From a virus (taxonomy: Duplodnaviria > Heunggongvirae > Uroviricota > Caudoviricetes): a stretch of DNA of 52,782 bases. Made by a program: the position numbers and the translations under genes. Location: the IMG/VR virus record IMGVR_UViG_2718218129_000002; one strand, given 5' to 3'. Below the pieces are notes generated by a model. It worked only from the letters and a program-made list of their open reading frames with translations. It was not told where the DNA came from and ran no database searches. Shown one piece after another: positions 35,299-51,329 of the stretch (its first letter is position 1; each line of letters opens with the position of its first letter).

Positions 35299-36003
35299 TT
35301 ATTCTTGCTTTTTGGGAGGTCTTGGATATTTCGCAGGTAATTTTTCTGTAATCTTAAATATATCCTCATTTTTTAGTATTGTTCGCATTACAAAATTTTC
35401 TATAATTACCAAAAGCGATTTAAATTCAGTTTCGTTCGGTGCCCATGTCCTGTGTGCAGCTGAGTTGCCAGCTTCGGTTACAATTTTAAGTTGGCTCCTT
35501 TCTGTTTCCCCAATAAAACCTTCCTCTTTAAGAATGTCAACCTTCTGGCCTAATGTATATCCTGGATGAATATTTAGAACCTCAACTGTTCTGTCAAAAA
35601 TAGTTCTAAGTCCAATCGCCGCTAAAATGAATGATTTATTTTGAAATGCGATGTACATTTCGTTCATTATTACATACAGCTGACGATCTTTGTTTAATAT
35701 CTCACCAAACCAAGTTGGTCTAATCTCTTCTTGCTCTTGAGTGGGATATGTTGATATATGATAGTTATATACCATACAATCATAGCCTGACTCATCTCTT
35801 TCAATGTCGTAATCTTCACTGTGACGGGATTTAATATATGTAAATATTCCGTCGCACCCCATACACTCTAATAATTTGTATTCACTTTCAGCCCAAAAAT
35901 AGTTGCCCCCATCATCCTCACTCCATTCTCTTTTTTTATGGCCTATTATGTGGCAATTTTTTTCACCTTTACAATATGGACAAGGAGCTTTAATTTTTTC
36001 CAT
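35299..36003 (-). CDS. zinc-ribbon protein with HEPN-like (DUF4145-like) C-terminal domain, candidate defence protein
   Basis: 234 aa; CPYC...CMGC zinc ribbon; C-terminal helical domain with GNSAAHRTW; AT-rich gene; the domain family is uncertain. Confidence 0.55.
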   Translation of the reverse strand: MEKIKAPCPYCKGEKNCHIIGHKKREWSEDDGGNYFWAESEYKLLECMGCDGIFTYIKSRHSEDYDIERDESGYDCMVYNYHISTYPTQEQEEIRPTWFGEILNKDRQLYVIMNEMYIAFQNKSFILAAIGLRTIFDRTVEVLNIHPGYTLGQKVDILKEEGFIGETERSQLKIVTEAGNSAAHRTWAPNETEFKSLLVIIENFVMRTILKNEDIFKITEKLPAKYPRPPKKQE

Positions 36004-36717: not shown

Positions 36718-37944
36718 ATGAGCGGAGAAGTATTTCATAAAAGATTGTTTCCCGTTGGCCAGGGTGGATTTAGTTTAGGCGGACTGAGGGGAAGGGATGG
36801 TAGTTTGCTTTACAGTTATGTGTATGACTGCGGAAGTGACCAATTAAATGCGTTGCGTAGGGAGATGGATGTGGCTAAATCTCTCTTTAATATTGATGAG
36901 AAATATATTGATGTGGTATACATCTCTCATTTGGATTCAGACCATATAAATGGATTTGACCATTTATGTCAGCTTGTAGATAACAAAATACGCAAGGTTG
37001 TATTACCATACCTAGATATCCATGATAGCTATTACTTAATTGCATCGGAGCTATGCTCTAATTCTACGTCAGGTCTTTTTATGGAATTTCTCATTGATCC
37101 TGTCAAATGGATAAAATCAAGGTTGCCTGAGGCAGATATATCTTTGCTTTACCCCAGTGATATTGATGATAATTTTGACCCTCCTATATTTAATAGTGAA
37201 AACATTAAGGGTAGCGCTGTAAGCTTACCAATGAAAATATCTGACTCCAAAGGAGATGTTGAATGTAACCGTTGGTTGGTTAAAAGGATTGGGGAAAACA
37301 AAACTGATACACTAATGTCATTTATTTCTTGGATACCGCCCCGTTCACGTAAGAAAATTGAAATTTTCAGTCAGCAGTTAATAGAAAATGGTTTTACTGA
37401 GTTAAGTAAGAAAAAAATGCTTAAAATATTAACTAGCACGGGGGAAAGAAAGAAATTACGCGAGTGTTATTTAAAACTTGCTGGCGATCATAATGTAATA
37501 TCAATCAATCTCTTGATTATTAATAATCAAGAAGCTGAGATGAAAATTGTTAATGAGCCTTCTCGTGAGTGGTTTAGTTTTAGAAATAGTCGGGTTGAGC
37601 GACATTTTCTCTTTGATAGAGATAAAGGAATTAGATCTGTTTTATTAACAGGTGACTCAAAGCTTAATACATCATTGTATTATAATAAATGGGCTGAATT
37701 CTATTCAAAAGTGATTAAAACGGTAAGGGTGATGACATTACCTCATCATGGTTCGGAATTAAATTTCAATCAAAAAATAATTGCGGATTTTGATAATGTT
37801 TTGTTTATAGCTCAGTCGGATGGTCATTCACATGGACACCCATCACAATCAGTAATCGATGCTATAAATTCAAGTCATGGACATAGCGTTACTTTAGTTG
37901 ACAATAATGCTAAAAATTGGGTTGATATAAAATATATATTTTAA
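36718..37944 (+). CDS. metallo-beta-lactamase-fold protein
   Basis: 408 aa; ISHLDSDHINGF resembles the MBL HxHxDH motif; C-terminal LPHHGS as in ComEC-type MBL domains; AT-rich. Confidence 0.65.
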   Translation: MSGEVFHKRLFPVGQGGFSLGGLRGRDGSLLYSYVYDCGSDQLNALRREMDVAKSLFNIDEKYIDVVYISHLDSDHINGFDHLCQLVDNKIRKVVLPYLDIHDSYYLIASELCSNSTSGLFMEFLIDPVKWIKSRLPEADISLLYPSDIDDNFDPPIFNSENIKGSAVSLPMKISDSKGDVECNRWLVKRIGENKTDTLMSFISWIPPRSRKKIEIFSQQLIENGFTELSKKKMLKILTSTGERKKLRECYLKLAGDHNVISINLLIINNQEAEMKIVNEPSREWFSFRNSRVERHFLFDRDKGIRSVLLTGDSKLNTSLYYNKWAEFYSKVIKTVRVMTLPHHGSELNFNQKIIADFDNVLFIAQSDGHSHGHPSQSVIDAINSSHGHSVTLVDNNAKNWVDIKYIF

Positions 37945-43865: not shown

Positions 43866-44288
43866 TCAATGCACTACGACAGAATCGCTAGGAGAACCGC
43901 CGCCGCTGAAATGTGCTTTACGGTAAACGGCCTGGACTGCATCATCATGCGCATCAATTGCCGTACTCAGTGCATCCTGTGCCGCCAGTAATGCACGGCG
44001 TTCCAGGGTATCGAAGATGCAGAGTCGGTGACGCAGCTCGCGAGGAAGAATTGCCAGAACCGCAGGGATCAGTTTCTGAATTTTTTCCCTTTGCGCATTC
44101 GTTTCACCTTTCAACCAACGATGATAGATATTCTGCTGATTGTTCCAGTCCTTGCCTGGTACCAGGGGCAATTCGCCGCCCCCCTGGCGCAGATATTCTT
44201 CAGTAATTGCGTTAGCGACCCACGCCTGCCCTTTTTCGGCTGCCAGGGCTAACAACACTGATTCGATGTGCTCATGCTTGATTTTCAT
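43866..44288 (-). CDS. ydaT: YdaT-like protein (cII-position early gene)
   Basis: 140 aa, the size and position of Rac YdaT. Confidence 0.6.
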   Translation of the reverse strand: MKIKHEHIESVLLALAAEKGQAWVANAITEEYLRQGGGELPLVPGKDWNNQQNIYHRWLKGETNAQREKIQKLIPAVLAILPRELRHRLCIFDTLERRALLAAQDALSTAIDAHDDAVQAVYRKAHFSGGGSPSDSVVVH

Positions 44289-44539
44289 GAATCAACTCCC
44301 ATCAGCTTTTTCGTAGTAGTTTTATTTCTGCCAATAGTTAAAATTGCATCGGCAGAAAATAATCCGTTTGATGCATGAGCGATTTTTTCAGCGTAATTTG
44401 TTTCGCCGGTATATTCTGTGCGAGGCAATTTTCCGTTATCCATCCATTTGTAGATTGCTCTTTGGCTGACACCACAAACGTCGGCCACAACAGAAACGCG
44501 AACAGTTTTGATTACATCTTCAAGTGTTTTCTGGTTCAT
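44285..44539 (-). CDS. ydaS: Cro-like HTH regulator YdaS
   Basis: Start set at MNQKTLEDVIKTV...; HTH segment VCGVSQRAIYKW; divergent from the repressor gene. Confidence 0.6.
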   Translation of the reverse strand: MNQKTLEDVIKTVRVSVVADVCGVSQRAIYKWMDNGKLPRTEYTGETNYAEKIAHASNGLFSADAILTIGRNKTTTKKLMGVDS

Positions 44540-44554
44540 ATCATCCTCACAATG

Positions 44555-44594
44555 TGAACTTTGAGTACATGCTATAACAGAACTGACAGTACAT
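44555..44594. promoter_or_regulatory. candidate operator repeats in the divergent repressor / ydaS region
   Basis: TGAAC-N4-AGTACAT at 44555-44570 and AGAAC-N4-AGTACAT at 44579-44594. Confidence 0.4.
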
Positions 44595-44618
44595 TCAAGA
44601 GCGAATATCATTGAACTT

Positions 44619-45038
44619 ATGGTTCATGAAGATAAAGCGCGTAAAGAGTTCGCCAGTAGGCTTGCGCTAGCCTGTGAAAACGCTGGTTATGAACAACATG
44701 GAAGGCAGGCAGAAATTGCCCGTCGAATGAAATTAACACCAAAAGCGGTTAGCAAATGGTTTAATGGTGAAACAATTCCTCGCCGAGAGAAATTAAGGGA
44801 ATTAGCAACACTCATTGGAACAACACCAACCTATCTTTTGGGAGAGGATACAGAAGAAAGTGGACAGATACGTTTCTATCAGGAGTTAAATCCAAGACAA
44901 AAAATCATCATTGACCTTCTGGACGAGCTCCCTGACAGTGAGACAGATGAACTTTTAAAAACTCTTGAGGAGAAAAAACAGAAGTACAATGCAATTTACG
45001 AAGAGTTAGCACGAAAGAAAAAACAAAAAGCCTCTTAA
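44619..45038 (+). CDS. racR: prophage repressor (XRE-type HTH), RacR-like
   Basis: 139 aa; N-terminal HTH; no LexA/S24-like C-terminal domain seen; divergent from ydaS. Confidence 0.65.
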   Translation: MVHEDKARKEFASRLALACENAGYEQHGRQAEIARRMKLTPKAVSKWFNGETIPRREKLRELATLIGTTPTYLLGEDTEESGQIRFYQELNPRQKIIIDLLDELPDSETDELLKTLEEKKQKYNAIYEELARKKKQKAS

Positions 45039-45104
45039 ACCAGCATAAATCCGGTAGCGTCCCCCTCCGGGTTTGTGCTTCACTTTATCCCGTCTCATTT
45101 TTTT

Positions 45105-45154
45105 ATACATAAAATGTACTTAAAGTACTTTACAATAATGAACACAAAGTACAT
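45105..45154. promoter_or_regulatory. second operator-like repeat cluster downstream of the repressor gene
   Basis: Palindrome ATGTACT-TAA-AGTACTT plus TGAAC-ACAA-AGTACAT at 45139-45154. Confidence 0.4.
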
Positions 45155-45325
45155 TATATACCTACCAACCCACCCCGCCCCACAGAACGCCGGGCAATAC
45201 TTCGAGTTACCAGGCAGTGGTCAGGGGTTAAGTAGCCAGCCCGAGGCGTATGAACATGACGGCGGGATTCAAATTTTGCAGTGCAGCAGTTAGTTCCGCC
45301 ACCCGGCGTTAAGGGGATAGATAAG

Positions 45326-45460
45326 ATGGTGCATTACGAAGTAGTTCAGTATTTGATGGATTGTTGCGGTATCACTTACAACCAGGCTGTGCAGGCTTTA
45401 CGCAGCAACGACTGGGATCTCTGGCAGGCAGAAGTCGCTATACGTAGCAACAAGATGTGA
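45326..45460 (+). CDS. ydaG: small protein, YdaG-like
   Basis: 44 aa hand-translated MVHYEVVQYLMDCCG...; strong AAGGGGA Shine-Dalgarno. Confidence 0.45.
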   Translation: MVHYEVVQYLMDCCGITYNQAVQALRSNDWDLWQAEVAIRSNKM

Positions 45461-46234: not shown

Positions 46235-46552
46235 TTCCGATATCCATAAAGAGTCGGTCTTGTCTGTTAAATTTAAATGGTGGGAGTGCGCCTCCGGTTG
46301 TAAATAACGACATTGCTGTGTGTAGTCCTGGCGGCATCAGTTTTTTTCTTGAAGTTCGGCTGATGTCCGCCCTTTTTAAAGTGAATTTTGTGATGCGGTG
46401 AATGCGGCTAAGCGCACGTGGCACAGTTAAAAGTCATGTTAGTCCTTATTGGTTTGGGTGGGAAAGCCGACTTTAATTGTTAACTGGTTGCAGTCACCTG
46501 GAGGCACCAGGCACCGCATCAACAAAGTTCATTTGTAAAAATGGAGATAATT

Positions 46553-46774
46553 ATGATTGCACATCACTTCGGAACTGATGAAATACCACGTCAGTGTGTG
46601 ACTCCTGGCGATTATGTTCTTCATGAAGGCCGGACATATATTGCCTCGGCAAACAATATTAAAAAGCGAAAACTATATATTCGTAACCTGACCACAAAAA
46701 CATGCATTACTGACCGCATGATTAAAGTCTTCCTCGGTCGTGATGGTTTACCTGTAAAGGCGGAGTCATGGTGA
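46553..46774 (+). CDS. kilR: Kil protein (FtsZ inhibitor)
   Basis: 73 aa from [15 protein letters not shown]...; GGAG Shine-Dalgarno six nt upstream. Confidence 0.65.
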
Positions 46775-51251: not shown

Positions 51252-51329
51252 AACTTCATAGCTGATTATTAATAATCAACATCGGGCGTCAATTTCAGTC
51301 TAACATTGGCGCCTGCCAGAGGTGATGCG

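Follow-up and report, generated by a model that had tools for sequence, protein, structure and literature searches.

Putative operators of the HK022/933W specificity class around the repressor gene of a Rac-like prophage

With a probability of about 0.9, the repeats that flank the repressor gene of the prophage analysed here, a full-length one of Rac-like type beside ttcA, serve as operators in a bistable, lambdoid switch with the specificity of the HK022/933W class. The window, that is, the whole stretch of 52,782 nucleotides that was analysed, has a counterpart in a 99.9% identical E. coli genome, where a full-length prophage that includes terminase, lysis and Q genes lies beside ttcA. An OR/OL arrangement of lambdoid type had been suggested for these repeats in an earlier note on the same DNA, and this reading is supported by the positions of the repeats, their overlap with promoters, their linkage to the repressor/cro module and the homology to HK022 and 933W.

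The earlier note was built on a 16-mer, WGAAC-N4-AGTACAT, and a palindrome. All three copies of the 16-mer are present where it had placed them (TGAACTTTGAGTACAT at 44555-44570, AGAACTGACAGTACAT at 44579-44594 and TGAACACAAAGTACAT at 45139-45154), versus 0.01 expected, and 0 of 100 shuffles reached three; the palindrome, ATGTACTTAAAGTACTT at 45114-45130, is present as well. An independent repeat finder recovered both repeat families, together with a 24-bp-spaced pair at 45113/45137. AGTACAT alone is not enriched over the whole window (5 copies versus 3.8 expected), four of its five copies lying inside one 600-bp stretch. The functional unit is not the 16-bp direct repeat that had been put forward. 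The sites are better described as a 15-bp dyad, TGWAC-N5-GTWCA, an imperfect inverted repeat whose half-site centres are 10 bp apart, and the A and T that AGTACAT has in addition are part of the spacer and of the promoter -10 elements.

When the dyad was searched with at most one mismatch, 17 matches were found window-wide versus 4.7 expected, a number reached by 0 of 100 shuffles. Five dyads are packed in 600 bp (44555-45153), a length for which about 0.05 would be predicted from the window-wide rate. At two mismatches no enrichment was seen (74 versus 63 expected window-wide), so that weaker additional sites cannot be claimed. An exact dyad at 35652-35666, which sits in a DUF1133 coding sequence, was taken as a chance match; a weak match within cro (44376-44390), considered as a possible extra operator, was not distinguishable from chance. 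The five dyads, the neighbouring genes and the candidate promoters are listed below.

43866-44288, minus strand: ydaT (PF06254, E 6e-11; 92.5% DNA identity to K-12 ydaT)
44285..44539, minus strand: gene for a Cro-type lytic repressor of 84 aa ('ydaS' in the earlier note)
44555..44569: candidate operator OR1, TGAACTTTGAGTACA, exact match to TGWAC-N5-GTWCA, at -64 from the repressor ATG
44571..44598, minus strand: PR candidate for cro-ydaT-replication genes, -35 TTGAAT (44598-44593), 16-bp spacer, -10 TATAGC (44576-44571)
44579..44593: candidate operator OR2, AGAACTGACAGTACA, one mismatch, at -40 from the ATG (all loci), 24 bp from OR1
44583..44611, plus strand: PRM candidate for the repressor, CTGACA-17-TATCAT (consensus scan 10/12)
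44612..44626: candidate operator OR3, TGAACTTATGGTTCA, exact match, perfect palindrome across the repressor ATG (44619)
44619..45038, plus strand: gene for the immunity repressor, 139 aa (Pfam HTH_3)
45115..45129: candidate operator OL2, TGTACTTAAAGTACT, one mismatch, abutting the PL -35 with a 1-bp overlap
45129..45157, plus strand: PL candidate for ydaG-ydaF-(kilR-racC-recE-recT), TTTACA-17-CATTAT (consensus scan 9/12)
45139..45153: candidate operator OL1, TGAACACAAAGTACA, exact match, in the PL spacer with a 2-bp overlap with the -10

The gap between the repressor and cro genes is 79 bp long (44540-44618), and three dyads lie in it or adjoin it. Only two had been counted before: OR3 was overlooked because its right half is GTTCA and not GTACA. 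The start-to-start spacing is 24 bp between OR1 and OR2, 33 bp between OR2 and OR3 and 24 bp between OL2 and OL1. The start expected for PR falls within OR1, which begins 2 bp downstream of the PR -10, while OR2 occupies the PR spacer and includes the PRM-like -35 (CTGACA). PR is a predicted promoter, read by eye and from the alignment to HK022 TTGACT-16-CATAAT; it was not called by the consensus scan because TATAGC, a poor -10, lacks T6. Since OR2 lies atop the predicted PRM -35 (about -40 to -26), it may activate PRM, as reported for 933W, or repress it. The PRM -10 ends 8 nt before the repressor ATG and no Shine-Dalgarno sequence is found, hence a leaderless repressor mRNA is expected; such mRNAs are described for CP-933P paaR2 and lambda cI (PMC8630535). 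A TAnnnT hexamer immediately 5' of OR3 was observed in 9/9 loci. The distance from the start of OR3 to the ATG is 7 bp, a value shared by the annotated 933W-type OR3 and by its counterparts in all related loci; by the predicted promoter positions, OR3 also covers the PRM start. It lies where the autorepression site of the repressor gene would be expected.

A second set of repeats had been correctly located downstream of the repressor gene and upstream of the early-left genes: OL2 and OL1 lie on the TTTACA-17-CATTAT of PL. OL2 is the former 'palindrome', and its half-sites are 100% conserved in eight loci. OL1 and OL2 are 24 bp apart in 8/8 loci and vary only in the central 5 bp (for example TGAACAGATAGTACA in related locus L012); the PL -35 TTTACA is invariant across eight loci. 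Taken alone, the promoter hexamer matches are not significant (2 versus 2.5 expected in shuffles). No dyad was found at 45062-45076, which is the position of HK022 OL3 (53 bp from OL2), nor, at up to one mismatch, left of OR1 as a counterpart of O_FR. No intrinsic terminator was found in the stretch from the repressor gene to OL, and the PL leader (45164-45330), searched for a structured or put-like RNA, gave no Rfam match and a non-significant fold z-score of -1.53.

The repressor, ydaG, ydaF, kilR, ydaE, racC and recE are on the plus strand, and cro, ydaT and the replication genes on the minus strand. OL/PL faces the early-left genes ydaG, ydaF, kilR, recE and recT. The sieB gene lies on the strand opposite to the repressor-recE series. 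The first pair of repeats had been placed between the repressor gene and a divergent 'ydaS'. Its location stands, but the gene is an HK022-type cro: the 84-aa product shares 62% identity with HK022 Cro (E 1e-34) and about 47% with a 933W-type Cro, while its similarity to K-12 YdaS is limited to E 0.028 and the YdaS Pfam (PF15943) was not matched. The 'ydaS' identity was thus rejected, the gene being unrelated to K-12 YdaS. The Cro helix SQRAIYKWMDNG resembles the recognition helix of the repressor, which would fit a reading of the same sites by the two proteins.

The 139-aa repressor consists of an HTH domain (about residues 1-75), a disordered linker and a helical C-terminal hairpin. Its identity to HK022 CI is 46.5% (residues 4-102), and that to a 933W-type CI is 50.7% (residues 1-73). 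The recognition helices (TPKAVSKWFNGE in the window, TPKAISKWFNGE in HK022 and SSKGVSKWFNAE in 933W) are nearly unchanged, and the short repressors do not vary from T40 to R56. A structural model of the 933W repressor predicts Lys42 and Lys46 as DNA contacts, and a K46A mutant was made (PMC3317979); both lysines are kept here. The tail is homologous to DicA (E 8e-15, with 28% identity across residues 30-137). The NCBIfam DicA model (NF007257) scores 56.4 bits, under its curated cut-off of 101, and close likeness to DicA is confined to the C-terminal half, which is conserved in Salmonella homologues. The structure model shows the helical hairpin following the disordered linker, with a pLDDT of 80.8; a sequence search of the PDB and a fold search returned generic XRE-type HTH domains only, and no match for the tail. 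By these comparisons, the repressor is a composite, with a DNA-binding domain of HK022/933W type followed by a helical tail of DicA type. A Peptidase_S24 domain was not matched in the 139-aa protein. Hence RecA-stimulated self-cleavage is not expected, and induction would need another route.

In order to evaluate conservation, eight further loci whose DNA-binding domain is 62-89% identical were gathered by protein search and contig look-ups: they come from genomes or phages of E. coli, Salmonella, Klebsiella, Citrobacter and Raoultella, plus HK022. A single-protein genome scan gave one near-identical Shigella locus only. Three sites at -64, -40 and -7 are present in all loci; the -64 offset of OR1 is common to HK022 and seven other loci, its half-sites being conserved between them. 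The 24-bp OL pair was found in every locus reaching far enough, even with cargo genes between the repressor and OL (in some loci a HigB-type toxin with its partner, or an AAA ATPase). Over the nine loci, pairwise column identity is 0.96 in the OR half-sites and 1.00 in those of OL, versus 0.55-0.69 in central and inter-site columns, and no variation occurs at positions 2, 4, 5, 11, 12 and 14 among 22 distinct sites. OL3 is absent in 4/4 short-repressor loci and present 53 bp from OL2 in 4/4 S24-type loci, these groups being small and non-independent.

The linkage of the sites to the repressor/cro module is also seen against the Rac prophage of K-12. By blastn versus the Rac region of NC_000913, the immunity cassette (44295..45162: cro, OR, repressor and OL/PL) has no DNA homology to K-12 Rac, whereas its flanks are 92.5% identical on the ydaT side and 99.7% identical from the PL leader onward. 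The homology ends at 44294, at the ydaT start, and restarts at 45163, six bases past the PL -10, with the break just after OL1, so that cro, OR, repressor and OL were exchanged together as one block. In about 2,700 E. coli records, the match covers only the part from 45157-45163 rightwards. No TGWAC dyad was found in the K-12 Rac cassette and no match to the RacR operators in the window, and the similarity of the window repressor to RacR is confined to a 33-aa HTH stretch (E 1e-4). In K-12 Rac, OR is made of RacR dyads, WTAGGC-n3-GCCTAW, the third lying across the racR ATG (PMC9638921); downstream of racR, a TTGACA-17-TATAGT stands at the PL-equivalent position, flanked by RacR-type repeats. 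In these sequences, the operators co-vary with the repressor/cro module and travel with it across mosaic boundaries. An identical immunity region is carried by Escherichia phage vB_EcoS-673R7, whose genome is deposited, and the region was detected in 1046/5426 complete E. coli genomes, including the O157 Sakai prophage Sp10. The module is nearly invariant in E. coli, 962 records showing at least 99% identity.

We infer that the repressor and Cro bind the dyads and regulate PR, PRM and PL; the evidence of such binding is homology to HK022 and 933W. In the proposed mechanism, where the partner at each site, the order of affinities and the transcription starts are predictions, dimers of the 139-aa repressor would bind the 15-bp dyads, whose half-sites are one helical turn apart, through the recognition helix T40-PKAVSKWFNGE. 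Occupation of OR1 and OR2 would switch PR off (cro, ydaT and replication genes) and that of OL2 and OL1 would switch PL off (ydaG, ydaF, kilR, racC, recE and recT). OR3, over the start of the leaderless repressor transcript, would mediate negative autoregulation at high repressor, and the 84-aa Cro, binding the same dyads, would turn off PRM and later PR and PL. In 933W, the affinity of the 15-bp symmetric operator is set by positions 2-5 (G, A/T, A, C), and at position 3 binding to T is more than 3-fold tighter than to A (PMC3317979). If this preference holds here, one may speculate that OR3, with two A-type halves, is the weakest site and OL2, with two T-type halves, the strongest, which would give the usual order in which the lytic promoters are repressed before autorepression sets in.

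Could the repeats instead be targets of the neighbouring YdaT, a CII analogue, and not of the repressor and Cro? K-12 Rac YdaT does footprint inside the racR-ydaS intergenic region (PMC11879457), and at the DNA level the ydaT genes of the window and of K-12 are 92.5% identical. Known YdaT sites are however of the form TTGATT-N6-AATCAA (PMC9986795; PMC11879457), and a perfect box of this kind exists apart from the dyads, at 44278-44295. Moreover, K-12 Rac is devoid of TGWAC dyads despite a nearly identical YdaT, and HK022, which has the dyads and carries a gene annotated CII, has no YdaT box at the locus. We consider YdaT as the cognate protein highly improbable. An origin by chance or composition, or by duplication of promoter sequence without a dedicated binding protein, seems every bit as improbable. 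The region is AT-rich, AGTACAT alone is unenriched in the window and the 3' end of the 16-mer partly overlaps -10 hexamers; yet the counts observed for the 16-mer and the dyad were not reached in 100 shuffles, the half-sites are kept over five genera while central bases and flanks drift, OR3 falls on a start codon and not on a promoter hexamer, and the homologous sites in HK022 and 933W are known repressor sites.

Slightly less remote, though still quite unlikely, is that operators of HK022 type were inherited by a switch that is altered or partly decayed, with cooperativity and looping lost or with only one of the two proteins using the sites, so that regulation would be materially unlike that of HK022 or lambda. 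The swapped C-terminal domain devoid of S24, the loss of OL3 in four short-repressor loci and of O_FR, and the non-cooperative 933W repressor with an equal 3+2 layout (PMC5977221) all point that way. On the other hand, half-sites are intact at all five sites, and the homologues of the repressor show no variation in the HTH. In E. coli the module is widespread with hardly any variation (962 records reach at least 99% identity), and it is found as well in the genome of a deposited phage; this speaks for purifying selection acting on a functional switch.

This is an ordinary prophage switch, set apart only by the tail swap in its repressor combined with its smaller number of operators, and no new kind of regulation is revealed by it. 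We put forward tentatively, at somewhat below even odds, that the protein is a natural domain-swapped repressor, made of an HK022/933W-specificity domain and a DicA-type oligomerisation tail, acting on a reduced set of 3+2 operators and for which RecA cleavage is impossible. If this is true, about one fifth of sequenced E. coli, including O157 with Sp10, carry a prophage that is non-inducible by repressor self-cleavage; the host might be immune to phages of HK022 immunity, and an incoming HK022-type CI might repress the prophage. The locus is also a natural experiment in which the HK022 DNA-binding domain and operators are kept, the oligomerisation domain is changed and two accessory operators are gone, bearing on how far cooperativity, looping and the induction route depend on the C-terminal domain. 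The switch has a bearing, too, on the cross-immunity of cryptic prophages and free phages. The present map gives five candidate operators and three candidate promoters for a very common type of Rac-like prophage, distinct from the RacR and PaaR2 switches already studied.

The backbone of the prophage is shared with K-12 Rac and CP-933P, which have three OR dyads (the third over the ATG of the repressor gene), repeats on a PL-like promoter downstream of the repressor and YdaT as CII analogue in common with the window, together with the leaderless repressor mRNA predicted for it, whereas their repressors, cro genes and operator sequences are unrelated to it; the CP-933P PaaR2 operators are repeats of the GTTTAGTAA type (PMC8630535). 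The dicA/dicC region of Qin has the same layout, including a DUF1391 gene downstream, but uses its own repeats: the recognition helix of DicA and its operators (TTAGY-N4-RCTAA-like, read by eye) differ from those of the window.

The half-site had been described as unrelated to that of lambda, which is correct, but it is of a known kind: the window operators are of the HK022/933W type and not a new half-site. HK022 has TGAACTTATGGTTCA, GGAACTGATAGTACA and TGAACTTATGGTTCA at -64, -40 and -7 from the cI ATG, offsets equal to those of the window, and the OR regions of the two, like their OL regions, align almost base for base. HK022 OR1 and OR3 are identical to OR3 of the window (TGAACTTATGGTTCA), and GGAACTGATAGTACA stands where the window has OR2. 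At the OL2 position HK022 carries TGTACTATTGGTACT, with TGAACTTTAAGTACA 24 bp off, on TTTACA-17-CATCAT (CATTAT in the window). The two systems differ in their repressors, HK022 CI having 235 aa with an S24 LexA-like domain and the window repressor 139 aa with a DicA-like tail; in accessory sites, since OL3 and O_FR are present in HK022, the former 53 bp from OL2 and the latter beyond cro, and both are lacking in the window; and in their neighbours, which are nun/put and a lambda-type cII in HK022 but the Rac genes ydaT, ydaG and ydaF in the window. HK022 CI binds cooperatively to adjacent operators and loops OL to OR, according to PMC8053113, which cites Carlson & Little 1993. Because the C-terminal domain of the window repressor is unlike that of HK022 CI, this cooperativity and looping are not simply transferable.

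The 933W repressor binds non-cooperatively to three OR and two OL sites, and OL3 is lacking (PMC5977221). A GenBank record of a 933W-type immunity region annotates 15-bp OR1-3 and OL1-2 in the layout of the window, with OR3 7 bp before the ATG. The 933W OL is 2.3 kb away, beyond stk, unlike that of the window, and at position 1 of its sites 933W has a preference for C (CGTAC or CGAAC), whereas the window dyads read TGWAC. Its repressor has S41 and an S24 domain, that of the window P41 without S24. Both systems nevertheless share the 15-bp dyad xG(A/T)AC-N5-GT(A/T)Cx, the 3+2 layout and residues K42 and K46 of the repressor.

A perfect binding box for YdaT, the CII analogue, lies exactly at the left mosaic junction of the immunity cassette with respect to K-12 Rac. 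The K-12 counterpart reads ATGATTCATGAAAATCAA on the ydaT strand, and the sole difference is the base on the non-homologous side of the junction. The upstream gene is an HK022-type cro in the window, unrelated to the ydaS of K-12, where the YdaT box serves activation of a reverse, PRE-like promoter within ydaS (PMC11879457). When the whole window was searched for YdaT-box-like dyads with at most one mismatch, 4 matches were found against 0.33 expected. The junction box and two dyads located elsewhere are the following:

44278-44295: perfect YdaT box, TTGATTTTCATGAATCAA, spanning the cro stop codon and the ydaT ATG
51262-51279: YdaT-box-like dyad, CTGATTATTAATAATCAA, between rcbA and xisR
37513-37530: perfect YdaT-box-like dyad, TTGATTATTAATAATCAA, adjoining a hok/gef-like gene

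The dyad between rcbA and xisR is located upstream of xis/int, in a PI-like position; it is also carried by K-12 Rac.

Two RacR-type dyads, TTAGGCATAGCCTAT and TTAGGCATTACCTAT, were detected downstream of racR in K-12 Rac (L001 6643-6683), the counterpart of window 45115-45157. They flank and fill a TTGACA-17-TATAGT promoter, and this arrangement constitutes an OL/PL for RacR. The operators described in the part of the RacR papers considered here are OR sites only (PMC9638921).

Outside the immunity region of the window, 12 sites match the operator pattern of the switch with at most one mismatch, compared to about 4.7 expected. One exact match is found far from the switch and is probably due to chance:

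35652-35666: operator-pattern match, TGTACATTTCGTTCA, within a DUF1133 coding sequence

Two sub-threshold Rfam matches were obtained upstream of kilR, in a region where the sRNA kilS is annotated in K-12:

46317-46372: DicF, 39.1 bits (gathering score 48)
46374-46560: STnc100, 38.6 bits (gathering score 47)

The non-K-12 immunity cassette of the window is also present at 99.5% identity in NZ_CM135829.1, a 4.83 Mb assembly labelled E. coli DH5alpha. Since this cassette is unexpected in a K-12 derivative, its presence suggests that the assembly is mislabelled or contaminated.

In related immunity regions from Salmonella (L009 and L010), Raoultella (L014) and a Klebsiella phage (L006), inserted cargo genes separate the repressor gene from OL; they code, for example, for a HigB-type toxin and its HTH partner or for a 480-aa AAA/SMC-like ATPase. 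The corresponding position is occupied by rexAB in lambda and by paaA2-parE2 in CP-933P.
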